IMG/VR virus record: IMGVR_UViG_3300045972_000146
Span: 29,864 to 93,863 of that record
Reading direction: 5' to 3' (one strand)
DNA: 64,000 bases
From: a virus
The notes beneath the pieces were generated by a model. It did not search any database, was not told where the DNA came from, and saw nothing but the letters and a program-made list of their open reading frames with translations. Below, one piece after another: positions 1 through 13,009 of this stretch. Position 1 is the first letter of the stretch, and every line of letters begins with the position of its first letter. Both the position numbers and the translations under genes were made by a program.

Positions 1-119
1 AATGAGAAATCTTTCTGATTTTTCCATAAGTGAGGAAGTTGCAGTCGGGGATACAGCAACTGAAAGCAAACGATAGTATCCAAAACCATTTCAGAGTTTA
101 TCAACATGTAAAACAATTA

Positions 120-1950
120 ACGTCTAAGTTAGGACCTATTAATATGCACACACAGGCAGTGTGGTGTTAGGGATAAACTTGCCTATTAGACAATAGTATG
201 CGCTATTAAAAAAGCAAGTCCCATGTGATGGAATTTAAAGTCACTACAAAAAAGAGTGCGGGGTTGAACTCCTAGCAACAGCCTATGCATTGTAGGAGGG
301 TCTTTAACTGCGTTTGTAACGTACATAGTTAGAGTAGGTATAACGGCGACCAAACAAGACACGTTATTAAAAATGGTACAGCTTTGGAACTGTATCGACT
401 GTTGAACAAGGGTAACTGCACGAACAAAACCACTTACAGGTAACTCTGTATAATAGTACTGCGTAGGTTATCGATCAATTAATTATTAATAATATAAACC
501 GGCTAGAAATGCGCGGGGTGGAAATCCAATAATTAATTCAAGCTATAGATTACACTTTGAGGGTTAAAGACCCTATGGCCCATGGACCAGTGAAATAGCG
601 ACCTGTCAAGTTATTAAGTTTGAGACAGATAAAAAATACACAAACTAGCCTTACTAATTCACTGGCTACAATAAAGTGGAGAATTAGCCCTAGTATGCTT
701 TCAAGGTTAATCGAAAGTGGGAGGTGCATGTGCTGGTACGCATGACAAGAGCTTCAAGGCGAAAGCCGAAAACCGGGCACGCACGGTATAATGCAAACCG
801 AAACCTAATTTACGCTGTTTCATAATTTTCAGCCGTATTGAAAAAGATTAATCCCCTGGGGTAGGGGCGAAGTTTATCCTGCCAGACAAAAAGAACGCCA
901 CGTCTTTAGTCAAATTTCACGAACGTATGGGAAAGCCGTTCACCCAAATTGCATATTAGTAGGCTCTTCCCTGTCTCGGAAATAGCCGAAGGAAGTCGAA
1001 GACTATTCAATCCGTGCGACAGAAGCTCCTGTATACAACTAGTGGAAGGGTCAAACACTTAAAAACCATATTTAAGGTGGTCGAAAGCTATCACATTTCT
1101 AAGCGACTAAAAAGCATAGAAAGATCGATAATTAGTACACTCCCTATCTGAAGTCTAGAACCCTGGGAGCATTCTACCCAGATAAAGGTCAAAAGCAAGC
1201 CGGGAACTTCATGCTGTAACAGGACGGAGCCACCGTCAGATGTAGCGGAGACGGTACATTCTTGCCTGGACGATAGACGTAGTCACTAGATAGGATAAAA
1301 TGCGTTATTTTTCTCAGACAATTTCAAGACTGCGCGGACTTCAAGGGCCGCTACAATATAGATCTTCAGAACACCGTTTATAAACCGTTGGCCTCATTTG
1401 CCAATATGAATCGACAAGGAATTGATACAAGGGTCGCAGCAAAACAACCATAGTTCTTTATTGCTTTCTTCAACAAGTAAAGTATGCCTTAAATACATTG
1501 ATATTATTATATAATTATCTATCGCGTGTCAATACGTAGATAAACCTTTCAAGCCTAGCACTTGGGGATGGAGTATGAGCCTAATTAATATAATGTAATT
1601 GTTCGAGAGACCGAAAATTGCTACAAATATCATAATTTATAAAACCCATTTTAAGCCGTTCTAAGGCATTATAAGTCAGCGTTGATACGAAAGTACTATT
1701 GTGAAAAGATAGTGGCATAGCGGAGCTGTAAATGCGTATAAAGGGCACAATTCCTAACTAATAGTTGCAGTGGGCGCAAAACCCATAGGTTAATCGTAAA
1801 TTAGCTACTTTCAAACCACAATCCCAACCCCTCTTCTAGTACCTAGCGGAAAAAAGAGCAGCGAGTGCGATCGCGGGATTATTTTCAAATTTTATCCGAA
1901 GAATTCTCATAAATGTTAAATTGGACAGTTAAACGGGCTACGGCAGAACA
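120..1950 (+). ncRNA. Putative very large structured non-coding RNA (or cluster of structured RNAs); boundaries approximate
   Basis: No ORF >=60 aa in any frame over about 2 kb. Long-range helices 135-148/950-963 (14 bp), 170-180/870-880, 705-712/846-853, 1143-1150/1287-1294 and 1494-1506/1586-1597. Many local hairpins and GNRA loops (758-767, 1686-1695). G-U wobbles favour the + strand. Confidence 0.65.
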
Positions 1951-2022
1951 TTCCAATCAAGTAGGAACTTTCAGTGATTATCAAAAACAACATTATTTAT
2001 CAAAAATAGGAGGAAACAAACA

Positions 2023-2505
2023 GTGAAAAATTCAAAAGAAGAAGCCCTACGGCTTTTCGGAGCGACCCTAGGAGGTCATATCCACTCAATCAAAGTTATA
2101 CCAATGGATAAAGACGCAAAATCGAAAGATGATGCATTCCAGGTAAAAGTACCATTCCAATCATACGTAGTTGATCACGTAAAAGTGAACACAGTAGCAC
2201 ACAAACAGGTGTCAGGTGGTATCGATATCGTCCTTATCAACGGTGGCGAAAAAGAAATTAAAATCGGTTTAAACGAGCCATTGATTAACAATGCTTCGGA
2301 AATCGTTAACGGGTCCGACGTTATTGAAAAACGGACATTTTTTGGTGACGCAACAACACCGGCCGAAATCGTAAAAGCAATGAATTTATCAGAAGTGGCA
2401 CGCATTGATACGATTATGGAAGAACTTGCCGCAACACGGGAAGCTCTTATCGGTATCGTTGAAGCAACCGACCGTGCTGCAAAATCTTACGACGGCTTAG
2501 ATTAA
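2023..2505 (+). CDS. Hypothetical early protein (160 aa, GTG start)
   Basis: ORF with AGGAGG at 2008-2013; helical C-terminus; no recognised family. Confidence 0.75.
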   Translation: MKNSKEEALRLFGATLGGHIHSIKVIPMDKDAKSKDDAFQVKVPFQSYVVDHVKVNTVAHKQVSGGIDIVLINGGEKEIKIGLNEPLINNASEIVNGSDVIEKRTFFGDATTPAEIVKAMNLSEVARIDTIMEELAATREALIGIVEATDRAAKSYDGLD

Positions 2506-2533
2506 TTCTATGCCCTAGGAAAGGAGGCGCAAC

Positions 2534-3067
2534 ATGAACGAAGAAGAACTTATTATCGTATTAGACGATTACGACAAAAATCATTTCGCGGAATTAATTG
2601 ATATTTACTTAGAACCTAAAAGTCGCTTTCGCATTAAAAATGATGGAACCGTAATCTTCGAAAAACATGGACCATTCATTGATTGGTTCGTTCGTTCAGA
2701 AAATCAAGTCGATTTCTTAAATTGCTTCCAAGCAATAGTTAAAGTAATGCTCGACGACAAAGTTAAAGGAAGTATACCATACATCCAGTCGCTTTGTGGC
2801 GAAGCTATGGGTGAATTGATGGCTACTAATAATAGAAAACAAGCTGTAACTAGCTTGCTATTAGCTCACCTTAATGACTCGCAACCGAATTTCAACCCAG
2901 GACGATCTCGTAACAGAGAACTAATGGATGACATTCAAATTGTCGAACAAAGCAGACGGCGCAAAGGACCAGTTAAAGTGTATTTTGGAGGCGGTGGAGA
3001 CATGGCCAACTTAGCAGACTTTATTAATGAACGTAAAGCTTTGGTTATCTTCGGAAACGGAGAATAA
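2534..3067 (+). CDS. Hypothetical early protein (177 aa)
   Basis: ORF with AAGGAGG at 2521-2527; no recognised family. Confidence 0.75.
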   Translation: MNEEELIIVLDDYDKNHFAELIDIYLEPKSRFRIKNDGTVIFEKHGPFIDWFVRSENQVDFLNCFQAIVKVMLDDKVKGSIPYIQSLCGEAMGELMATNNRKQAVTSLLLAHLNDSQPNFNPGRSRNRELMDDIQIVEQSRRRKGPVKVYFGGGGDMANLADFINERKALVIFGNGE

Positions 3068-3084
3068 CAAAACAAAATTTAAAA

Positions 3085-3160
3085 AGATATAAGTTGGGTA
3101 ACTCCGTAATACAAATATCTGCATATGTAGGGTAACTCCGTTATTGCATAAGTAGTGCTG
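3085..3160 (+). repeat. Tandem 12-nt direct repeat GGGTAACTCCGT, each copy in a hairpin
   Basis: Exact copies at 3096-3107 and 3130-3141; outer stems agatat/atatct and tgca/tgca. Confidence 0.6.
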
Positions 3161-3196
3161 ATTTGTGACTTAAATTAATTTATATAACCCCATACT

Positions 3197-3230
3197 AGAA
3201 AGCCTCTGTATTTACTATAGAGGCTTTCTT
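3197..3230 (+). terminator. Intrinsic terminator-like hairpin
   Basis: agaaagcctctgta / tatagaggctttct 14-bp inverted repeat downstream of 2534..3067. Confidence 0.6.
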
Positions 3231-3340
3231 AGAGGGATTATAATGCATAAAGAGAGGAATCTCAATATGATACGACGGGGAAAAGTATCAGGCTGAATAG
3301 TTATCATAAAGTCAAACCATTAAAAATCAATTTTATATAT

Positions 3341-3769
3341 ATGAAAACAGCAAAAGAACTTATCCAAACCCGCGAATCTCTGATCAACAATATTAAAAAG
3401 AATTGGGATCGTATTCGCATTGAAAATGTGGTAGAAGCCGGACAAACACGTAATTATAATGTACAGGCTTTGTACAAATCAATTATTAATGACTCATTGG
3501 CTCTTGTCGAAGCAAAGTTAGATATTCAATTAGTGAATATTGGATTTAAAAAACGAGAAGAAATGCCAGCAAGTTGCATTTATCCGCAAATCTACTCATT
3601 ACAACAATTAAAAGAACAGAAAACGAAACTTAATCTTATTCCAACAAAAGGAGCAGCGGTTCTAACAGCCTCATTTGTAGAAGAAGAAACTAAGGTTCTG
3701 GATTCACAGATTCTTGCACTTGAAAGCCACCTTGAAAACCACAATAATTCGTGGGAAATCGCGGCATAA
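3341..3769 (+). CDS. Coiled-coil protein, DIP1984-like
   Basis: 142 aa all-helical pattern (MKTAKELIQTR...ENVVEAG...LESHLENHNNSWEI) recalling the DIP1984 family; recognition only. Confidence 0.55.
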   Translation: MKTAKELIQTRESLINNIKKNWDRIRIENVVEAGQTRNYNVQALYKSIINDSLALVEAKLDIQLVNIGFKKREEMPASCIYPQIYSLQQLKEQKTKLNLIPTKGAAVLTASFVEEETKVLDSQILALESHLENHNNSWEIAA

Positions 3770-3779
3770 AAACAAAACA

Positions 3780-3845
3780 GAAGTAACGGTGATATGTTAA
3801 TCAGTGACAGAAATGATTAATAATTGGGTTCAATCCCCATACTTT
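3780..3845 (+). ncRNA. tRNA-like element (acceptor-like stem plus T-arm, no D-arm)
   Basis: gaagta 3780-85 / tacttt 3840-45; TGGG-TTCAATC-CCCA 3825-3839; middle stem ttaatca/tgattaa with a 10-nt loop. Confidence 0.55.
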
Positions 3846-3976
3846 AACAAATGGCAATAGCGTACCAGTTAACTAAGTACGTTTTGCAAAACAGCAGAAT
3901 AAAGTTTTTTGTCGGGTTTTTAAACTGCTACCATGTACATGGTCTAAAACCCTATCATTATTTTAAAACAATTCAA

Positions 3977-4462
3977 ATGAGACCAATCGAAAGAATTGAC
4001 AATTTCTTGAAATTAGTAGATTGGAATTGGCTTCTATATGAAAAATGGAAAATAGATAAGGAAGACTTAGTAGCAAAGAAAATTTGCTATATGACAAATC
4101 CTACTCTACCTGAAGTTTGGAAACAAAACCCAGACCAGCGAATAGGACAGTTGCTTATTAATTTAGGTTTAATTGACGATTCATTGGAAAGATGGGTGAT
4201 AGAAGACTCAACAATTTTAATTGACCAAGGAATAGAACCAGAAGAAGTATTATATTGGACGTCTATGTATAATGAAAACTCAGAAATATTAGAAACGCCG
4301 ATTACACGAAAAGTAAGTACTTTAACTGAAGAGCATATTATTAGAATACTGGCCTTTATGGTCGAACATGGTGGCAGAATATCGCCAGATATGCAAAAAG
4401 CATTCGATAATATGTTATTAAAATACAAAGATGTGCCAGAGGAATTGCCAATGGCTGCATAA
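3977..4462 (+). CDS. Phage protein with a YihD/DUF1040-like N-terminus
   Basis: MRPIERIDNFL...W.QNPDQRIGQLLIN motif. True start is probably ATG 3977 (in frame with the 3851 track ORF) after an A-rich leader. Confidence 0.6.
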   Translation: MRPIERIDNFLKLVDWNWLLYEKWKIDKEDLVAKKICYMTNPTLPEVWKQNPDQRIGQLLINLGLIDDSLERWVIEDSTILIDQGIEPEEVLYWTSMYNENSEILETPITRKVSTLTEEHIIRILAFMVEHGGRISPDMQKAFDNMLLKYKDVPEELPMAA

Positions 4463-4464
4463 TA

Positions 4465-4494
4465 CAAATCATTTCAGATGCTATCAGAGCAATA
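4465..4494 (+). repeat. 5-nt periodic CANAT-type repeat upstream of the initiator-like gene
   Basis: caaat cattt cagat gctat cagag caata. Confidence 0.45.
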
Positions 4495-4516
4495 ATTTAA
4501 CTTTAAAGTAAAAGAA

Positions 4517-5083
4517 ATGCTGATAGAACTAGATTTGGACGAGGCTAAACGTCTCAAAATAACGACAAATCAGTTTCTGCTAGTAAAATTCATTGTAGAT
4601 GGAATAAATTTTGATGCATACCAAAGCACACTATCTATAACCAATTCAGATATAGAGAATTTAATTAGTAAAAATATATTAACAATTGAATCTAAGTATG
4701 ATGAATCAGACCTAACAAGTCTATTTGTTACTCAGGAATTTATTGACAAGTTCAAAGCAAGGAACTTTTTTGATGAATTTTTCGATACTTATCCAATTTC
4801 CGCAACCCGTCCAGACGGAACTAAGGATTACCTACGAGGTGACATTAGTAGATGTAGGAAGACCTATGATAAAATTGTGGGAAAAAGTAAAAGTAAACAT
4901 GAACATATTTTAGAGTGCTTAAAATTCGAAGTCTCAACTAGAAGGAAAAGTGGCTCAATGTCATATATGAAAAGAATGTCAAAATGGCTATTTGCAGAAG
5001 AATGGTTATTATACGACGAATTTTTGAAAGACAAGAAAGTTCAAAATACGGCAGAAAAGATATATGGAACAGAAATCGACTAA
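4517..5083 (+). CDS. Putative replication initiator / replisome organiser
   Basis: Possible N-terminal wHTH; C-terminal FDEFFDTYP...YMKRMSKWL..EEW pattern typical of phage initiators; overlaps the DnaB gene. Confidence 0.55.
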   Translation: MLIELDLDEAKRLKITTNQFLLVKFIVDGINFDAYQSTLSITNSDIENLISKNILTIESKYDESDLTSLFVTQEFIDKFKARNFFDEFFDTYPISATRPDGTKDYLRGDISRCRKTYDKIVGKSKSKHEHILECLKFEVSTRRKSGSMSYMKRMSKWLFAEEWLLYDEFLKDKKVQNTAEKIYGTEID

Positions 5084-6050
5084 AGTCCTTAACTATAAAC
5101 ATATTTCTTCTGCCACTAACGAAATTGTTAGATATATCAAAGACAGACGAGAAAACAAAGTACGCTCATTGAAAACGAGATGGTCTAAGTTTAATCGACT
5201 AGCAATGGGGGGAGTAGAGCCAAACAGTATTTATGCAATAGCAGGAATATCTGGCTCGGGAAAGTCCTCTTTTGTTAATACTCTTGAAACTGATTTAATT
5301 GATTTAAATCCAGACGAAAAGATTGTAATGCTATCTTTCAGTTTTGAAATGCTTTCCTCTAGACAAGTGGGTAGGAAACTCTCCTACAAATTAAGAAAGA
5401 CCACGTCTGAATTATATTCGGCCTCCGACAAGGGCCTAATCACTGAGGCGGACTTTGAAGGAGTTGAAAAAACAGCAAAACAAATTACAGACTATCCGAT
5501 TTACTATGTAGATTCAGCTGGTACTGTACAGGAAATAGAGAATACAATCAAATTCTTTCAGAATACTATTGCCAAAGATAAATGGCTTGTAGTAACAATC
5601 GACCATACGCTATTAATACGCGGAAACTCAGGCGAGTCTGAAAGAGGAATTATTGTGGATTTAGAAAAAATGCTTATCGAAGCAAAGAAAATTGGCAAGA
5701 CTTCGATAATACAAATCTCTCAAATGAATAGGAATTTGGAATCACCCGAGAGGCTGAACAATTCCGCCTTACATTACCCGCAACGAAGCGATTTATCGTC
5801 AAGTGATGCAGTATTCCAAGGAAGCGATTACGTAATAGTTATACACAGGCCTGAATTACTCGGCATATTGTCCTACGGGACATATAACCTCCCCGTCAAG
5901 GATTACGTATATATGCATTTTCTAAAGAACCGTGAGGGTGAATTAAGAATATTGAAATTTATCAATGATCTTAAATTCAATAATTTGAAAGAACCTGATG
6001 AAGATCAGGAAAAAGCCAAAGAACAACAACAATTCTTAGAATTAAAATAA
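5064..6050 (+). CDS. dnaB: DnaB-like replicative helicase (C-terminal ATPase domain only)
   Basis: Walker A AGISGSGKS, SFEM, IDH, ISQMNR, P.RSDL, KNREG motifs. Confidence 0.92.
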   Translation: MEQKSTKVLNYKHISSATNEIVRYIKDRRENKVRSLKTRWSKFNRLAMGGVEPNSIYAIAGISGSGKSSFVNTLETDLIDLNPDEKIVMLSFSFEMLSSRQVGRKLSYKLRKTTSELYSASDKGLITEADFEGVEKTAKQITDYPIYYVDSAGTVQEIENTIKFFQNTIAKDKWLVVTIDHTLLIRGNSGESERGIIVDLEKMLIEAKKIGKTSIIQISQMNRNLESPERLNNSALHYPQRSDLSSSDAVFQGSDYVIVIHRPELLGILSYGTYNLPVKDYVYMHFLKNREGELRILKFINDLKFNNLKEPDEDQEKAKEQQQFLELK

Positions 6051-6051
6051 A

Positions 6052-6642
6052 ATGACTTATAATAAAAATTATAATAATAAGTTTGCGGTAAAATTACCAA
6101 GTGCAAATGTAGATCCATACGGTTACTATAAAAAAGCTATTATCGACAAATTGATCGACAAATATCCTTATTTAACAATGGCCGGTTTAGATGCACCATT
6201 CTATACTCCGTCTGGGAAACCAATTCGTAGCGTTGAATATGCCTCTGCAGGAGATGCAATTACATTCGGAACTGCCAAATCACATGATGTTAATTGGGTG
6301 AAAAATACCAATTTCATGAACGGCGTTGTTCCTACTTATGATATCCAAAAAGATTGGACAGAAGTAATGAGCAATATCGATGCTTTCGCAAAAGCACGCA
6401 AACCAAAACAATCATATAATCCATATACAGTACATTCTTCTTATTGTAATTGCAGTTCTTGTAATTCTAGTGAGAACTACTTCTATGTGGGCGGAAAATT
6501 AGTTGAAGTCTATGATGATTTTATCAAAGTAGGTTTAACTATTATTCCTCGTTATACAAAACCAGCAACGTTCAAGTATTACTCAGTTTATGAGTTGGAA
6601 ACAATTCATACAATTATAATTACAGTTCGTTCTTTGTTCTAA
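6052..6642 (+). CDS. Hypothetical protein (CNCSSC motif)
   Basis: 196-aa ORF tightly coupled within the replication operon. Confidence 0.7.
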   Translation: MTYNKNYNNKFAVKLPSANVDPYGYYKKAIIDKLIDKYPYLTMAGLDAPFYTPSGKPIRSVEYASAGDAITFGTAKSHDVNWVKNTNFMNGVVPTYDIQKDWTEVMSNIDAFAKARKPKQSYNPYTVHSSYCNCSSCNSSENYFYVGGKLVEVYDDFIKVGLTIIPRYTKPATFKYYSVYELETIHTIIITVRSLF

Positions 6643-6664
6643 TAACAATAGAACATGAAAGTTT

Positions 6665-6699
6665 CAGATCATACCATATCATATCAAATTCTACCAGAG
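6665..6699 (+). repeat. 5-nt periodic CANAT-type repeat upstream of the AAA_24 gene
   Basis: cagat catac catat catat caaat tctac cagag. Confidence 0.55.
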
Positions 6700-6734
6700 A
6701 CATAAATGCTTTCGTGTTATAAAAAACACTTTAT

Positions 6735-7484
6735 ATGAGCATACAATTGCCTACCATTAAAAGTGTACCAAAAGCCCTCAATCCAAGATTTTTAATCTTG
6801 TTTGGGAAGCCTAAGGTCGGTAAAACAACGCTGTTATCCACATTGGATAATTGCCTAATTGTCGACCTTGAAGGAGGCTCTGAATTCCTCGAAGCAATGG
6901 CTGTTCAAGCCAGAAGTGTATCGGATTTAGGAGAGATTGCAAATGCGATTAAACTCAAAACAAATGAAAGCGGCCAAAAGCCTTATAAATATATTGCAAT
7001 AGATAATGCTACCAGACTAGAAGACATGTGTCTTCCTTATGCGGCTAGTCTATATAGAAAGAATCCTATAGCAAAGAACTGGACTGGAACTGACGTGAGA
7101 ACGTTGGATAAAGGTGCAGGTTATCTTTACTTAAGGGAAGCTGTCAAAACAGTCATTGATCAATTTCGTGGACTAACAGATAATTTTATTCTGATAGGGC
7201 ATACAAAAGACACAATGATTACTAAAGACGGCGAAGAACTTTCCGAAATGGCAATAGATTTAGTAGGAAAATTGGGCGACATAGTTTGCGGAGAGGCAGA
7301 TGCAGTTGGCTACGTATACAGAAAAACAAACGAAACAATAGTATCTTTTGAGGGCGGATTAAATTCCGTAAGAGAGGCGAGAGCTCCTCACTTAAGAGGT
7401 AAAAAAGTAGTTATTGCTGACTCCGACAAGGATAATGCTATTACTACCTATTGGGATAGAATTTACTTACCAGAAAATTATTAA
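6735..7484 (+). CDS. AAA_24 / Sak4-like ATPase (recombination)
   Basis: GKPKVGKTT Walker A, DLEGG, YIAIDN, LIGH, ADAVGY motifs. Confidence 0.85.
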   Translation: MSIQLPTIKSVPKALNPRFLILFGKPKVGKTTLLSTLDNCLIVDLEGGSEFLEAMAVQARSVSDLGEIANAIKLKTNESGQKPYKYIAIDNATRLEDMCLPYAASLYRKNPIAKNWTGTDVRTLDKGAGYLYLREAVKTVIDQFRGLTDNFILIGHTKDTMITKDGEELSEMAIDLVGKLGDIVCGEADAVGYVYRKTNETIVSFEGGLNSVREARAPHLRGKKVVIADSDKDNAITTYWDRIYLPENY

Positions 7485-7487
7485 GAT

Positions 7488-8087
7488 ATGATATTTAATA
7501 CAAATAGTGCTTTCAACGTAGAGAAGAAAGATGTTTCATTTTTAGGCGCCGGTATACATGAGAATGTAGAATTCGCTGGAATCAGAAACGAAAAGTCAAC
7601 AAATGGAAATATGTTTATTGAGTTTAAGTTTATTAAAGACGGAGCCACATTGACTCAGACTGAATATGAACCAACAAAATTCAATGATCAGACAGATGCT
7701 GAATTTGAAGATAAGGCTAACAAACAAGTAGCCAGAATATTACAAATAATGAGCCCTTGGTATACAAAAGAACAGTTAAGCAATTTTACTGCTGACTCTT
7801 TTGCTGTATTTGCTAAATGGGTTACTGATTTAATGAGTGCGGCCGACAAATCCATACTAGTTAGATTAAAAGTTGTTTATGGTCAAAACGGTTATACGTC
7901 TTTACCTAAATATTCTGTATATACTTTCATTGAACCAATGTCTGTGGAAAAAAGTAAAATAGCCGAACTTAAAATCGACCAATTTACTCGCCCAGTTATA
8001 GGTGATAAAGAAGAGCATGCTAAATCGTCAGCTGATGTATTTGCCCCTAAGGCAGAGCCAGTTGTTAACAACGATCTTCCGTTCTAA
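7488..8087 (+). CDS. Putative single-stranded DNA-binding protein
   Basis: Follows the Sak4-like gene; beta-rich; C-terminal DLPF SSB-type tail. Confidence 0.65.
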   Translation: MIFNTNSAFNVEKKDVSFLGAGIHENVEFAGIRNEKSTNGNMFIEFKFIKDGATLTQTEYEPTKFNDQTDAEFEDKANKQVARILQIMSPWYTKEQLSNFTADSFAVFAKWVTDLMSAADKSILVRLKVVYGQNGYTSLPKYSVYTFIEPMSVEKSKIAELKIDQFTRPVIGDKEEHAKSSADVFAPKAEPVVNNDLPF

Positions 8088-8100
8088 TAGTTGACAAAGT

Positions 8101-9078
8101 ATGAACTATAATACTGGTAACATACTAAATTCTAAAAGCAAGCATATTGGAAAAGAAGATATATTGAGCAAAACAACGGAGTATTCCATTTTTGCAAAAT
8201 ACATTGGAAATTTCAAGATTGGTCATATTTACAATAGTCCATTGAGAGAGGATAAATCCCCTTCCTTTGGAGTGTTTGTAAGCCATAAAACTGGTTCTTT
8301 GTTATACAAGGATATGGCCAGTGGAGATTGTGGAGATGTTTTTAATTTTGTAAAGAAATACAAAAATCTATCAACATACAACGAGACATTTAAGCAGATA
8401 AGAGAAGACATGTCAATTGACTCAATTGTTGGGTCAGATATAAAAGCGAATAGACGCTACGAGGTTAGAGAAAGCCATATCTCTGTGGTCAGAAAGCCAT
8501 TTACACAAGTAGATAAGGATTTTTGGGGACAGTTCAAGATTACACAAGACACATTGAAATTATACAAGGTAGACCCTATACAAAAATACCTTATCAATGG
8601 ACTAGTGAAGTCTAAATATGAAAACGATAACCCCATGTATTGTTACAAAGTATTCAACAGATTTAAGATTTACAAACCCTATGAAACCAAGCTACACAAA
8701 TGGCGTGGTAACCTTAGTGCATTAGACATATTTGGATTTGAGCAATTGCCCGAATCTGGAGACTTATTAATTATTACTAAGTCTTTAAAAGATGTCATGG
8801 TATTAAAGGAATTGGGATATGACGCCGTAGCTCCTTCGAGTGAAAGTACAATCATACCTGATGTCGTCATAGAGAATTTAAAAGCTAAATTCAAAAAAAT
8901 CGTTATATTCTATGATAGAGATAAAACAGGAATGACGTTTGCAAGGCAATTGTCAAGCAAGCATAAATTCAATGCTATTTTTATCAACAAAAAATATAAA
9001 ACCAAAGACATTAGTGATCTCGTGAAGAAAGCAGGATATGTGAAAACATTAACTATTTTTGAGCAGATGATTAATTAA
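8101..9078 (+). CDS. dnaG: DNA primase (degenerate zinc-binding domain plus TOPRIM)
   Basis: SPLREDKSPSF...GDVF N-domain lacking CHC2 ligands; ITKSLKDVM, FYDRDKTG, KDISD TOPRIM motifs. Confidence 0.88.
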   Translation: MNYNTGNILNSKSKHIGKEDILSKTTEYSIFAKYIGNFKIGHIYNSPLREDKSPSFGVFVSHKTGSLLYKDMASGDCGDVFNFVKKYKNLSTYNETFKQIREDMSIDSIVGSDIKANRRYEVRESHISVVRKPFTQVDKDFWGQFKITQDTLKLYKVDPIQKYLINGLVKSKYENDNPMYCYKVFNRFKIYKPYETKLHKWRGNLSALDIFGFEQLPESGDLLIITKSLKDVMVLKELGYDAVAPSSESTIIPDVVIENLKAKFKKIVIFYDRDKTGMTFARQLSSKHKFNAIFINKKYKTKDISDLVKKAGYVKTLTIFEQMIN

Positions 9079-9086
9079 AAACCAAA

Positions 9087-9150
9087 GGGCATAACCCTGA
9101 GGTTCGTACCGGGGTGTCCCCGATGCGATGGGAGCGATACCCATATGCCC
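9087..9150 (+). ncRNA. tRNA-like element
   Basis: gggcata 9087-93 / tatgccc 9144-50 (7 bp); TGGG-AGCGATA-CCCA 9129-9143; internal hairpin accct...ggggt capped by GG-TTCGTA-CC. Confidence 0.55.
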
Positions 9151-9209
9151 GACTAGATAGGGGCAAGAGAAAATAAGTATTATTATTAACTAACTACAAA
9201 TTATATCAA

Positions 9210-10433
9210 ATGATTATCAAATCAGATAACAAAAATACGTATTTAATTACCCCAGAAGAAACAAAACAATTCTTAGGAATTAATACAAATAAGACAATTC
9301 TTATTGACAAACAAAGTTTAGAATTTATTATCGAAGAAGCGGGACCCGGCATTTTGGCAACAAAATGGGTTGATGAAGAAATCGATGGACGTAAATTCCG
9401 AAAGGTCAAAAAAGAAATTGTATCAACGTTTGGAGACCTACTCCTTGAAGAGTATAAATCAACAAGCAAAATTTACGAAACTTTGAGTAAAAAATTCATT
9501 AATACCTCCGGTGTTTCTGATGTATTCAAAAACGCATTGGCCAACGACATGAATCTTGTGTTATTTGGTAAAGGCGGATTTGGTAAATCTGAAATGTGCG
9601 GTGAATTATTCGGATGTTCAGAATTGAAAGATCGTGTTTTTATTAAATCACTATCAGAAGCTACAACGGAAGAGGACCTGTTCGGAGGTATAAATGTTAA
9701 AAAGATGACAGATACTGGAGTAATCGAGTATAACTGCGAGAATTCCTTTGCAAATAAGGAAATTGTCATTTTTGAAGAAATTTTTGATGCTAATCCCCGT
9801 GTATTAGCTGCACTCAAAGATACTTTGACCTCGAAAGAGATACGAAACGGAAACCAACGATTCCCAATCAAAACCAAAATTATTATTGGTCTAACTAATA
9901 AGACTTATGATGAGGTTATTGAAGACGATTCGACAGAAGCGTTAACACAACGTTTCCCTGTTTCATACAAATTGCAATACGATATGACCAAGCTGGATAC
10001 AGCAGGGTTGATATTAAACCGTTATCCAGATTTCGATGGACGCAAGTTAGCCTCTATCCTTGATACTCTCAAGGAAATGTCAGACCTAACTCCGCGTAAA
10101 GTCCTTGAAATGTCTAAATACATTAAGGATCTGGAAATCATTAAAACAAAGAACTATTCTGAAAAGATTACCAATAATATGATGACTCCGGTTATCAATT
10201 ATTTGAAAAACAAATCAGTAATTGACTTTAATAAAATTCTATTTGATTCGATTGTGAATGCAGGCTCAGCAATTAAGGCGGAAGACGTAAGAGATTACGA
10301 CTCGTTTGTTGATACTAATCGCTGTCTTGAGATCATTAAGAATTCTAAAGTTGGCGGACTTGGCGTTTCAAATAACGTAAAAATGGAAATCGAGGAATTC
10401 TTCGGAGTTTTGAACAAAAAACTTGCTGCATAA
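9210..10433 (+). CDS. MoxR-family AAA+ ATPase (RavA-like)
   Basis: GKGGFGKS Walker A, TTEEDLFG, IFEEIFD Walker B, ALTQRF arginine finger, PR sensor 2. Confidence 0.85.
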   Translation: MIIKSDNKNTYLITPEETKQFLGINTNKTILIDKQSLEFIIEEAGPGILATKWVDEEIDGRKFRKVKKEIVSTFGDLLLEEYKSTSKIYETLSKKFINTSGVSDVFKNALANDMNLVLFGKGGFGKSEMCGELFGCSELKDRVFIKSLSEATTEEDLFGGINVKKMTDTGVIEYNCENSFANKEIVIFEEIFDANPRVLAALKDTLTSKEIRNGNQRFPIKTKIIIGLTNKTYDEVIEDDSTEALTQRFPVSYKLQYDMTKLDTAGLILNRYPDFDGRKLASILDTLKEMSDLTPRKVLEMSKYIKDLEIIKTKNYSEKITNNMMTPVINYLKNKSVIDFNKILFDSIVNAGSAIKAEDVRDYDSFVDTNRCLEIIKNSKVGGLGVSNNVKMEIEEFFGVLNKKLAA

Positions 10434-11629
10434 TGATAGCTGGTAATAATGCATACAAATGCTTTACGGACATTAAGTATAACCTTAGTGATGAGGCGAT
10501 TAACAAAATTATTAAAACAAAAAAAGCACTGAAATCGGAAATAACAAAGGTGGAAAAGGAATTCAATCCATTTTCTGGAAAGCCGATGACGGAAGCAATG
10601 ATGCAAGAGAAGGCCTCTCTTGATTTTATGTATAAGAATTTTGAAAGTCAAATTATCCCAAGTATATATAACAGTGTTGACGGTTATGATACGCAAACTT
10701 CTTTCTATCAACAAAATGATGGAACGCCAATCGAGACTCTAAAAGGAGTGTCTCGCACCTTAGATACAATATCAAGAGGAGCGAAATATGAAAATGGAAC
10801 TACGCTCGAAAAATCAATCAATGCCTTGTACGATCAGTATAAACACATTGCGGTTAGCGAACCAACTGAAAAAGAAATTGAACAGGAAGGAAAGGCGATA
10901 TCTAAAAATACCAAAAGCATAGAGAATGAGGATGCCGACCCTAGTGGTAACGACAACCCCATGAAAAATATGGCTGGTTATAAGCAACTCGAAGAGTGGC
11001 TAAAGAAAATGAAAGGAGATGATAGTAAAAAGAAGAGATTCATGCAAATGCAAAAAATGTCTGATTTACAAAAAGTTTCTGTAGTTGAATTTGTGAAACC
11101 AAAAGCGTTGTTAATGAAAAAAATTGTTAACAAAGAATTGTACTGTAAACAAACCTCACCAAGTGAGCGTTTCATGCATATTATGACCGACCTTTCTGGA
11201 AGTATGGGTGATTATCATACGTGGAGAAATCTACTATTGACGAGAACATATGAAGAATGTGTAAGCATAGGTATAAATGTTGCGACTGAGTTTTGGCATA
11301 CAAGTTTGTACACTTCGGGCAAAAATAGTCCACAAAAGATACGATCAAAAATGGATTTGGAAAATAAAGCATTAAGTATACGTCCTGGCGGAAGCGACAG
11401 AATGGGTTACTGTGCATTGCAAAAACTACAATCCCTTCAAAGAAAGAATGCAAAGCAATACATTTTATGTATATCTGACGGAACTGGATCTATCGATGAT
11501 CGAGAACAGGCAGAAGAAATAGAACGTATGGCAATTGAAAAAAACATTGAGATAAAGTTTGCTTTGTTCTCAAAAAATAACGACATGAATGGAACAAAAA
11601 AAGAAAATATATTCTACATTTATGACTAA
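10433..11629 (+). CDS. von Willebrand factor A domain protein (ViaA-like MoxR partner)
   Basis: MIDAS DLSGSM, PGGSD, ISDG motifs; TAATG coupling to the AAA+ gene. Confidence 0.82.
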   Translation: MIAGNNAYKCFTDIKYNLSDEAINKIIKTKKALKSEITKVEKEFNPFSGKPMTEAMMQEKASLDFMYKNFESQIIPSIYNSVDGYDTQTSFYQQNDGTPIETLKGVSRTLDTISRGAKYENGTTLEKSINALYDQYKHIAVSEPTEKEIEQEGKAISKNTKSIENEDADPSGNDNPMKNMAGYKQLEEWLKKMKGDDSKKKRFMQMQKMSDLQKVSVVEFVKPKALLMKKIVNKELYCKQTSPSERFMHIMTDLSGSMGDYHTWRNLLLTRTYEECVSIGINVATEFWHTSLYTSGKNSPQKIRSKMDLENKALSIRPGGSDRMGYCALQKLQSLQRKNAKQYILCISDGTGSIDDREQAEEIERMAIEKNIEIKFALFSKNNDMNGTKKENIFYIYD

Positions 11630-11713
11630 TATTAGCCATTTAAATGAGAATGCAGACGATGATGATGGACTACATTAATTAATATTACTAGTCCTCATTT
11701 ATAATTAAAAAAC

Positions 11714-11880
11714 AGCCTATTAGCATAACATTGACAATGCGTATTTTGCCTGTGTAGTTGGCTTTCGGACCTCCTGTTGCTGTATATGAGAATAATTCGT
11801 TATTCAATAAGATACCCAGCGTCCATATGAATATATTACTACCTTCGTACGATAAACCGGGAGTGTGTCCCGGATAGGTT
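11714..11880 (+). ncRNA. Putative rod-like structured RNA in a 380-nt intergenic gap
   Basis: Nested pairs 11714-20/11874-80, 11754-58/11838-42, 11767-70/11821-24, 11779-82/11817-20; apical gaataa-TTCG-ttattc; side hairpin 11857-73. Confidence 0.4.
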
Positions 11881-11950
11881 TCTAATGCATATTTATATGC
11901 AAACAATATTTAGTACTGGCATGCTAGATTGAAAAAGGGTTAGCCAAACA

Positions 11951-11984
11951 ATGATAGAGGTGTCTGCGAAGATATCTCTATCAT
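11951..11984 (+). terminator. 15-bp hairpin with GCGA tetraloop (terminator or processing site)
   Basis: atgatagaggtgtct-gcga-agatatctctatcat; lacks a clean U-tract. Confidence 0.5.
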
Positions 11985-12007
11985 AATATTACAACTAAAA
12001 CAAAAGA

Positions 12008-13009
12008 ATGGAAATTAAAATACCATATTACGAAGATAATTCTCGTATCTCCAATTCGTCTTTAGGATGGTTTAAGATTAGTCCTAAATACTTTAAAGGT
12101 AGATTAGATGGTACTGAGAGTTTCGAAACAACAAAAGCAATGGAAAATGGGACAATGACCCACATGTACTTGCTACAACCAGATGAATATAAGAAAACTT
12201 ATAAGATTTTAAACTTCACAACACCAACTTCCCCTCAACAGAAAAAGTTCTGTCAGGACTATGTAAATAGCAAGGCCGTAGGGGCCAATTTAAAGGCCGC
12301 TGAGGCATTCAAAGCTAATTATAGCACAACTGGCAAGACAGAGGAAGATAATGCCGTGAAGGGGCTAGAAATGGCCTTAAAGCTCGATTCTTATATCAAA
12401 TGGCTGGAGACTGGAGGAGATGCAGGTAATACTATTACTTGGAGCACCTCAAATCAACTGAAAATAACAAAAGAGAACGTCCAGCTTCATAAAAAAGCTA
12501 GCGATCTCTTATTTAATAACGGAAATTCACCAGAGTATATTGCTCAGAATGAATTCCATATTAACTGGAATGTCAAATTACAAAATGGACATTTACTAGA
12601 GTGTAAATCTTTAATAGATAGACTTATAATTGACCACGAAAACAAAGTAATAAAATTGGTAGATGTGAAAACAACTGCTGATGTTAATGCTTTTGCTTCT
12701 TCGTTCAAAAAGTATGACTATGGAAGACAAATGGCATTCTACTGGATGGCTATAATTTGGTATTTCGACAATGAACTTAAAATAGATATTTCTGAATACA
12801 AAAGCGAAACATATATAGTTGCCATTCAAAATAATGGTAATTGCGCATGTAGAGTATTTAGCATACCAGAAGAATCTATTGTTGCTAAAACAACAGAACT
12901 AGCACAAATATTATCAGACATAGATTGGCATATGAGTCAAGATATGTGGGATTATACCAAAGAGTATTACGAAGGTGATGGTGTAGAATCATTACCTAAT
13001 GAATATTAA
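12008..13009 (+). CDS. PD-(D/E)XK exonuclease (RecE/ExoVIII-like)
   Basis: ISNSSL, GTMTHMYLL, CKSLIDRL, LVDVKTT, YGRQMAFY motifs. Confidence 0.87.
   Translation: MEIKIPYYEDNSRISNSSLGWFKISPKYFKGRLDGTESFETTKAMENGTMTHMYLLQPDEYKKTYKILNFTTPTSPQQKKFCQDYVNSKAVGANLKAAEAFKANYSTTGKTEEDNAVKGLEMALKLDSYIKWLETGGDAGNTITWSTSNQLKITKENVQLHKKASDLLFNNGNSPEYIAQNEFHINWNVKLQNGHLLECKSLIDRLIIDHENKVIKLVDVKTTADVNAFASSFKKYDYGRQMAFYWMAIIWYFDNELKIDISEYKSETYIVAIQNNGNCACRVFSIPEESIVAKTTELAQILSDIDWHMSQDMWDYTKEYYEGDGVESLPNEY

Follow-up and report, generated by a model that had tools for sequence, protein, structure and literature searches.

Structures that borrow the shape of tRNA serve as processing signals in several systems, among them the t-elements of plant mitochondria, the 3' modules of MALAT1 (mascRNA) and MEN-beta, and RNase P sites in bacterial polycistronic mRNAs, and cleavage of these signals has been demonstrated experimentally. 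In the approach of Ponchon and Dardel, a tRNA scaffold is reportedly used for RNA expression in E. coli, with the body processed and stabilised as a tRNA. Here we examined three intergenic sites in a stretch of viral DNA of 64,000 nucleotides, hereafter the window, which covers bases 29864-93863 of the IMG/VR record IMGVR_UViG_3300045972_000146. The original prediction had proposed that these sites are three copies of one tRNA-elbow-like module. Comparison with related environmental crAss-like phages indicates that they are three single-copy RNA elements, each conserved at its own position. Sites 2 and 3 are two distinct RNA families under selection, which keep the acceptor/T-arm body of tRNA and cannot decode, and site 1 is a double hairpin of another kind. 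Phage tRNA-like candidates have been mentioned in general terms (PMC10690425), theta ribozymes adjoin phage tRNAs (PMC10879173), and tRNA scaffolds have been engineered for recombinant RNA expression (PMC3753655); our literature search found no description of the families reported here. The kind of element, a tRNA-like structure outside decoding, is known, and these families are new within the scope of that search.

Two tRNA-shaped families at sites 2 and 3

The record comprises 93,863 bp with 127-bp terminal repeats, and its layout is typical of Crassvirales: small genes, RNA genes and replication genes form a block on the + strand, and giant virion proteins are encoded in a block on the - strand. 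The primase shares 49-54% identity with those of gut Crassvirales, for example cr10_1 and cr56_1 (Suoliviridae). Two true tRNA genes, His(GUG) and Arg(UCU), are located upstream of the window, both on the + strand. When we searched for related loci, a primase protein search yielded about 20 and a primase alignment search about 80, and about 12 distinct environmental lineages (primase identity 53-79%) were syntenic with the window from the non-coding region to the ATPase gene, as judged by tblastx on genome pieces. A near-identity search of 10 kb of the window against GenBank phages gave no match, and blastn of site 2 and of one site-3 orthologue against GenBank phages gave chance matches or none. 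Covariance models were built from orthologues for site 3 (R1, from seven members), site 2 (R2) and site 1 (R3). Covariation was assessed by the percentage of paired alignment cells and by the pairs changed on both sides, with slid alignments as controls. Single-sequence folding was compared with shuffled sequence and gave one z value per site, which was significant only at site 3 (-2.3) and amounted to -0.7 at site 2 and +0.9 at site 1.

Site 2 consists of the following parts.

3779..3848, + strand: the whole site, a D-armless mini tRNA-like element (fold, R2 and covariation)
3779, + strand: A1
3780-3785 with 3840-3845, + strand: acceptor stem, first pair G-U
3785-3789, + strand: conserved linker A-A-C-G-G
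3797-3803 with 3814-3820, + strand: central hairpin, 10-nt loop with UGACA
3825-3839, + strand: T arm with the canonical loop UUCAAUC
3846-3848, + strand: trailer A-A-C, followed by AAA

The element begins 10 nt past the stop codon of the open reading frame (ORF) 3341-3769, and its minimum free energy fold is a three-way junction. R2 scored the window copy at 74.4 bits and found one copy per genome in this clade only, and the element was present behind the orthologues of ORF 3341-3769 in 12 lineages. The family plan starts with an A, an acceptor of 5-6 bp opened by G-U, the linker AAYGG, a variable hairpin and a 5-bp T stem, and it continues with the T loop U-Y-C-A-A-U-Y, the 3' strand of the acceptor and A-A-C-A-A. 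In the alignment of the 12 sequences (A4), 95% of the cells were paired and six of ten pairs had changed on both sides, while slid controls reached 36-72%. RNAalifold returned the same stems together with the central hairpin, and the first acceptor pair was G-U in 10 of the 12 sequences. The D stem is absent and only the conserved linker AAYGG stands in its place; the invariant GG of this linker probably takes the role of G18-G19, docking on the canonical T loop to form an elbow. A UGACA / AGAA-rich loop motif recurs within the family. Two orthologues only (L059 and L061) carry a canonical anticodon-type loop of 7 nt, U33-GAC-A37, which ARAGORN in its mitochondrial mode calls as a D-armless Val(gac). 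The window site retains UGACA within its 10-nt loop, and GAC is absent in 5 of the 12 members.

Both neighbouring reading frames drew our attention. The product of ORF 3341-3769 (142 aa) ends in Ala-Ala-stop (3755-3769) in the window and in 6 of the 11 relatives examined, an ending that recalls that of the ssrA degradation tag. The protein has five homologues and is predicted as a confident four-helix bundle (pLDDT 90), and comparison of this predicted structure with the PDB gave no informative match (best E 0.065). On the other side, a 203-aa ORF could start at the ATG at 3851, right after site 2. This start is probably not real; similarity to the relatives begins at about 3965, which fits the ATG at 3968. 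A protein-anchored search using the ORF downstream of site 2 retrieved 0 loci.

Site 3 is composed as follows.

9086..9153, + strand: the whole site, an anticodon-less tRNA-like element (fold, R1 and covariation)
9086, + strand: A1, opposite G72 at 9151
9087-9092 with 9145-9150, + strand: acceptor stem of 6 bp
9094-9103, + strand: 3-bp mini hairpin in the D-arm place, loop CUGA without GG
9104-9128, + strand: 11-bp GC hairpin with a UGU triloop in the anticodon-arm place
9128-9144, + strand: T arm with the loop AGCGAUA
9152 and 9153, + strand: A73 and C74

This element begins 8 nt past the primase stop codon (9076-9078) and folds into a four-way junction. R1 scored it at 61.2 bits and also recognised the phage's own tRNA-His at 34.8 bits. 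In the alignment of 8 sequences (A7), the acceptor and T stems were 100% paired and 10 of the 11 pairs had changed on both sides, while slid controls reached 22-44%; RNAalifold, unaided, predicted the same stems. Nearly all of the roughly 12 relatives have a tRNA-shaped element downstream of the primase gene, in most cases directly behind it. Most of these orthologues have an acceptor of 6-7 bp, a D arm of normal form, a variable loop of 5 nt and, on a T stem of 5 bp, loops of the UUCGAAU type. The anticodon place is occupied by a stem capped by GAAA, GUAA, UAAA or a triloop (UUG; UGU in the window), or by an insert of 50-110 nt, and one member (L014) lacks any central arm. On the tRNA model RF00005, which has a gathering score of 29 bits, the orthologues L021 and L018 reached 38.1 and 27 bits, respectively, with the anticodon loop reduced to 2-4 nt, and one orthologue is 74% identical to the phage's own tRNA-His. 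The window copy stacks 6 bp, the A1/G72 mismatch and a 5-bp T stem into 12 layers. Its T loop AGCGAUA, which it has in common with two other lineages, retains only C-R-A. Based on these comparisons, we conclude that site 3 derives from an ordinary tRNA gene through sealing of the anticodon loop, and that the window copy is a derived member of its family.

We also observed that the 3' strand of the site-3 acceptor, UGCCC (9146-9150), could pair instead with GGGCA at 9161-9165. This downstream complement is also found in the three closest lineages (L004, L008 and L023), which are the ones without the usual ACAA trailer. The acceptor strand may in this way switch partners, the tRNA-like fold giving way to a local hairpin in front of the ATPase gene; covariation is uninformative here because the bases are invariant.

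Sites 2 and 3 have several traits in common. First, both are located between co-oriented genes of the replication block, 8-10 nt after stop codons. Second, the true tRNA genes of the clade end with the discriminator A, a C and then an A/U-rich stretch, most often A-C-A-A, and this A73-C74-A-A trailer is common to the site-2 and site-3 families. The exception is the site-3 subclade of the window, in which some lineages have A-C followed by other letters. Third, since the stems covary with frequent G-U pairs, the alignments argue that selection acts on the + strand RNA and not on DNA. Finally, neither family consists of decayed ordinary tRNAs, an outcome that the original prediction had named, because the stems have been maintained through many compensatory changes.

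Elements of similar design were found elsewhere. The same genome contains, outside the window, a further element without an anticodon loop (G000:C1:19190-19275, approximate ends). Its acceptor reads GCCAGU/ACUGGC and its T arm AGGAG-UUCGAAU-CUCCU; it also has an A-C trailer and holds an insert some 50 nt long. When the cap UAGAAAUA before a T loop was used as a search pattern, it returned the clade itself and the GAAA-sealed cloverleaves given below, and most of the other matches were chance occurrences in coding DNA.

L128:1710-1783, L170:693-761, L177:7616-7684 and L203:11492-11566: GAAA-sealed cloverleaves in unrelated large phage contigs (GAAA within UAGAAAUA)

Two of them are located within tRNA arrays, and in one of these arrays, that of L170, the cloverleaf precedes a tmRNA gene by about 230 nt. 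Such cloverleaves are labelled Ser(aga), ???(gaaa) and Ile(aat) by ARAGORN. A hand-written scanner for a T arm, an acceptor and an AC trailer was discarded as uninformative because its 45 matches were as many as in shuffled genomes (about 42).

The three-fold word match and the double hairpin at site 1

The word TGGG-N7-CCCATA occurs at 1771-1787, 3825-3841 and 9129-9145, in all cases on the + strand and between genes, and these are its only matches in the whole 93,863-bp genome. Shuffling gave a mean of 0.05 matches (100 shuffles), and no shuffle reached three. The sequence geometry that had drawn attention to the three sites is thus accurately described and beyond chance. The flanking stems are also paired in the window (ccta/tagg; gaagta/tacttt with one G-U; gggcata/tatgccc), but they cannot be read as internal covariation of one module, the closing stem of site 1 being only 48% paired across 7 orthologues. 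Similarly, C-R-A is present at positions 3-5 of all three window loops, but position 3 at site 1 is C, A, G or U among the orthologues. The claim of one module in three copies did not survive, since each orthologue-built covariance model recovers its own site and never that of another family. Neither the TA|AC junction nor the exact TGGG/CCCA stem with its TA is conserved in the orthologues at any of the three sites. The T stems of the orthologues vary (CAGG/CCUG, UUGGG/CCCAA, GAGGG/CCCUC, GCGAG/CUCGC and others), and in the closest relative the three sites have three different stems. The triple match is therefore misleading: two of the three matches are T arms, which favour GGG/CCC beside the loop. 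We found nothing to explain why site 1 matches these two T arms.

The three sites are not canonical tRNAs, as had been proposed; ARAGORN detected 0 tRNAs in the window, the window copies gave no match to RF00005 at E<=10, and Rfam as a whole gave no match at the three sites. The proposed tRNA mimicry holds for sites 2 and 3, where it is backed by the RF00005 scores of orthologues, the response of R1 to tRNA-His, the mitochondrial mode of ARAGORN and the shared trailer, and it fails for site 1. Ribozyme covariance models (Rfam, E<=10) gave no match at or beside the three sites, nor beside their orthologues, although theta ribozymes may be missing from Rfam; by eye, the trailers are A/U-rich with no GC-rich nested helices. 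Self-cleavage is without support because no ribozyme family matched.

Site 1 is made up of two hairpins, and the stem once proposed to close it is given with them.

1771-1804, + strand: both hairpins, a two-hairpin module
1771..1785, + strand: hairpin 1, UGGG / CGCAAAA / CCCA, 4-bp stem and 7-nt loop, 100% paired in 7 orthologues
1790..1804, + strand: hairpin 2, UUAAU / CGUAA / AUUAG, with an invariant AUCGUAA core, 97% paired
1753..1756, + strand: ccta, the 5' strand of the proposed closing stem with tagg at 1786-1789, unconserved

Orthologues were available from seven lineages. In hairpin 1, three of the four pairs had changed on both sides (UGGG/CCCA, CAGG/CCUG, UUGG/CCAA and UAAG/CUUA), and the loop fits N-GNRNA-N in all seven (CGCAAAA, CGAAAAA, CGUAAAC, UGAAGAU and UGGAGAU). 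Hairpin 2 follows at a distance of 2-4 nt; two of its pairs had changed on both sides, and in several relatives a U-rich run comes after it. An upstream copy of its 5' strand (CUAAU, 1758-1762) can alternatively pair with 1800-1804, and this pairing is 83% kept. In most lineages the upstream strand has this option, which suggests a switch. R3 found exactly one copy per genome and never matched sites 2 and 3. Since the closing stem is unconserved, the A-C-A-A trailer is absent and the loop is GNRNA-like rather than a T loop, site 1 is not a tRNA mimic.

Site 1 is the 3'-most conserved module at the 3' end of a 1.9-kb non-coding region, and we consider a terminator/antiterminator-type or protein-binding module of the RNA from this region the more likely reading. 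It resembles the lambda-type boxB of nut sites in its short stem and its GNRNA-type, purine-rich loop (GCAAA, GAAAA, GUAAA, GAAGA or GGAGA), and this hairpin adjoins a terminator-like one with a competing upstream strand. The site differs from boxB in its 4-bp stem and in that the pentaloop is flanked on either side by one additional unpaired nucleotide. No boxA and no N-like protein was identified, no search aimed at them having been made, and we regard the resemblance as a lead only.

The non-coding region itself (77-2022) is 1.9 kb without an ORF. Relatives show nucleotide-level conservation in parts of it, where tblastx matched in each of the three frames (1648-1812 and other places), and Rfam found no known large RNA in it. 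Scans of window positions 1-12000 for sigma-70 promoters and intrinsic terminators stayed at chance level and gave nothing at the three sites. Pfam and PHROGs revealed no RNA-related function among the neighbouring proteins. Two related phages contain group I introns about 2.2 kb upstream of the primase gene (Rfam; L008:537-807 with 80 bits and L013:542-791 with 77 bits), and none was found in the window. Further downstream, a GC-rich hairpin, CCGGGAGUGUGUCCCGG, is located at 11857-11873, in the gap between a gene ending at 11629 and a gene starting at 12008. Three related contigs, probably of one lineage (L004, L006 and L007, at 6810), carry this hairpin in identical form, and when read on the - strand it is a terminator-like site.

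Proposed excision and rival explanations

We suggest, with a little more than even confidence, that sites 2 and 3 are tRNA mimics excised from long transcripts by the tRNA-maturation enzymes of the host, and that site 1 is a separate double hairpin. Sites 2 and 3 would be transcribed inside long + strand transcripts, which we assume from the gene orientation, and the host enzymes would recognise them by shape. RNase P would cut on the 5' side, while RNase Z or exonucleases, followed by the CCA-adding enzyme, would act on the 3' side. In this way the polycistronic RNA would be cut at both sites, and stable tRNA-shaped RNAs of about 65-70 nt would be released, whose variable central hairpin may itself be functional cargo. 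The 3' trailer that the mimics share with the true tRNA genes is indirect support for such cleavage. Consistent with co-processing, unrelated large phages hold the sealed design inside tRNA arrays, where it would be expected to be processed along with the tRNAs.

Several observations weigh against excision. First, the window copies are the most degenerate members of their families, and neither of them reaches the E<=10 level on the Rfam tRNA model. The T loop AGCGAUA of site 3 has no U54-U55, and the hairpin in its D-arm place has no GG. Second, position 1 is usually an unpaired A, and site 2 stacks 10-11 layers of acceptor and T stem where a tRNA has 12, so that cleavage by RNase P and RNase Z may be weaker or displaced. 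Third, the spacing to the stop codon is not universal, since the site-3 element of one relative lies about 190 nt from the primase stop. Fourth, the public sequencing runs matching window positions 1-10000 comprise one DNA pond metagenome, which may be the source of the record, and no RNA run. Finally, punctuation of transcripts by itself leaves the sealed design in the tRNA arrays of other phages unexplained, as real tRNAs already provide cut sites there.

A broader proposal is one to which we give tentative weight as a minority view: environmental crAss-like phages would keep a set of mimics, including a D-armless mini-tRNA with valine-anticodon remnants and a sealed tRNA, which are excised by the host and act in trans. 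The members of this set could be uncleavable decoys for tRNA-directed defence enzymes, or scaffolds presenting the variable hairpin.

As an alternative to punctuation, the released RNAs may act in trans as decoys or sponges by occupying a host protein that recognises the tRNA body, with the cutting of mRNA as a by-product. Proposed targets are defence nucleases or toxins directed at the acceptor end of tRNA, tRNA quality-control enzymes and modification enzymes, and the sealed loop would render the RNAs uncleavable and non-decoding. The body, with its acceptor, T arm and elbow contacts, is indeed conserved while the decoding loop has been abolished in many lineages. The genome holds several such elements together with true tRNAs on one strand, and in the tRNA arrays of unrelated phages the sealed design exists as free genes, where punctuation is needless. 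However, no partner protein is known, and the anticodon loop that most anticodon nucleases read is absent here. The acceptor sequences vary freely with no conserved identity set, and neither a PTH2-like gene nor a gene for a CCA-adding enzyme, which might hint at a pathway, was found in the phage genome. We consider this explanation unlikely, though worth keeping in view.

Less probable still is a natural tRNA scaffold, in which the central hairpin or insert would be the functional part and the tRNA body would serve only for excision and stability. It would account for the diversity of the anticodon place, which holds a capped stem of 4-6 bp, the 11-bp GC hairpin of the window or inserts of 50-110 nt, and for the recurring UGACA / AGAA-rich loop motif of the site-2 family. 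Nevertheless, the inserts share no family recognisable by Rfam, several members carry the minimal capped stem only, and L014 has no central arm to present.

The sites could also be 3'-terminal tRNA-like structures (TLS) of the upstream mRNAs, in the style of plant RNA viruses, with a cut on the 3' side only and addition of CCA. The tail would protect the mRNA or be aminoacylated, at site 2 by ValRS, given the GAC loops and A73. The start of the elements 8-10 nt after stop codons would suit this arrangement, as would a short acceptor/T stack that could disfavour RNase P, and the loops U33-GAC-A37 of L059 and L061, called Val(gac) by ARAGORN, find an echo in the UGACA of the window. The absence of GAC from 5 of 12 site-2 members and of any anticodon-like loop from site 3 speaks against it, however, and D-armless tRNAs are not known as substrates in bacteria, so that we regard it as very improbable.

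A slimmer chance remains for a single palindromic signal, TGGG-N7-CCCA-TA, bound by one factor either as DNA (an operator or a hairpin promoter of the N4-like virion RNA polymerase) or as an RNA hairpin. Such a signal would fit the exact matches, which number three where 0.05 are expected and all lie on the + strand upstream of + strand genes, and in one relative (G003) sites 1 and 3 are again alike in stem and UA (CAGG-N7-CCUG-UA). On the other hand, the ten shared letters are unconserved in the orthologues of every site, the loops are of different types (T loop, AGCGAUA and GNRNA), and compensatory stem changes that include G-U pairs indicate selection on RNA pairing rather than on a DNA word. 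An N4-type DNA hairpin promoter in particular was rejected because the covariation includes G-U pairs. A stimulator of stop-codon read-through was likewise rejected because its spacing to the stop varies and the in-frame extension is short. Decay into functionless pseudogenes of ordinary phage tRNAs is strongly disfavoured and the least probable explanation of all: site 3 is clearly tRNA-derived and tRNA finders reject the window copies, but position and shape are kept across relatives with primases just 53-79% identical, the stems are 95-100% paired with many compensatory double changes, and the loss of the anticodon loop is shared and old, not random.

Meaning and likeness to known systems

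If excision of sites 2 and 3 by host enzymes holds, crAss-like phages use the shape of tRNA without its function as a genome-encoded signal, which would explain how long operons are cut and small stable RNAs are made without dedicated promoters or terminators. If the mimics, once excised, act in trans, they would represent a widespread, undescribed class of phage small RNAs that goes beyond cut sites. The strong covariation and precise borders make both families directly testable. For annotation, it matters that tRNA finders miss such elements or, in other phages, miscall them as Ser(aga), Ile(aat) or ???(gaaa), and miscalled mimics can mislead inferences on codon usage or recoding. The locus also illustrates that a striking three-fold word match in one genome can consist of two unrelated kinds of RNA element.

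When compared with canonical tRNA (RF00005), including the phage's own tRNA-His(GUG) and tRNA-Arg(UCU) genes, the site-3 family shares the 7-layer acceptor, the 5-bp T stem with its 7-nt loop, A73 and the A-C-A-A gene trailer. Most site-3 orthologues add the D arm and the 5-nt variable loop, and one of them scores above the Rfam cut-off. In contrast, window sites 2 and 3 have neither a 7-nt anticodon loop with U33, purine 37 and a 5-bp stem nor a D arm with a G18-G19 loop, and at site 2 the acceptor is only 5-6 bp long and the D stem is absent. Site 2 resembles the tRNA-like domain of tmRNA in its acceptor and T arm, in having an analogue of the D loop but no D stem, and in the helix that extends from the anticodon-arm place. 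It differs in that G3-U70 is missing (its G-U opens the stem instead), as are a tag reading frame and pseudoknots, and the tmRNA models of Rfam and ARAGORN gave no match at sites 2 and 3.

Like the valine-specific TLS of tymoviruses, site 2 is tRNA-shaped and lies directly behind an ORF, and some of its orthologues have a GAC loop and A73. The viral structure, however, forms the very 3' terminus of an RNA genome, its acceptor contains a pseudoknot and its CC(A) is encoded, whereas the site-2 acceptor is an ordinary helix inside a DNA-phage operon and GAC is not universal. Sites 2 and 3 further share with engineered tRNA scaffolds a tRNA body whose anticodon arm is swapped for an arbitrary hairpin or insert; those scaffolds are a laboratory design, and the phage counterpart is a proposal.

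The t-elements and mascRNA share with sites 2 and 3 a mimic of the acceptor and T arm without a working anticodon, placed at the boundary of a gene or non-coding RNA. While their cleavage is experimental fact, that of sites 2 and 3 is a proposal. The phage elements further differ from them in belonging to a DNA phage of Bacteroidota-type hosts and in forming two families with signatures of their own, the AAYGG linker in one and the GNRA-sealed arms in the other.

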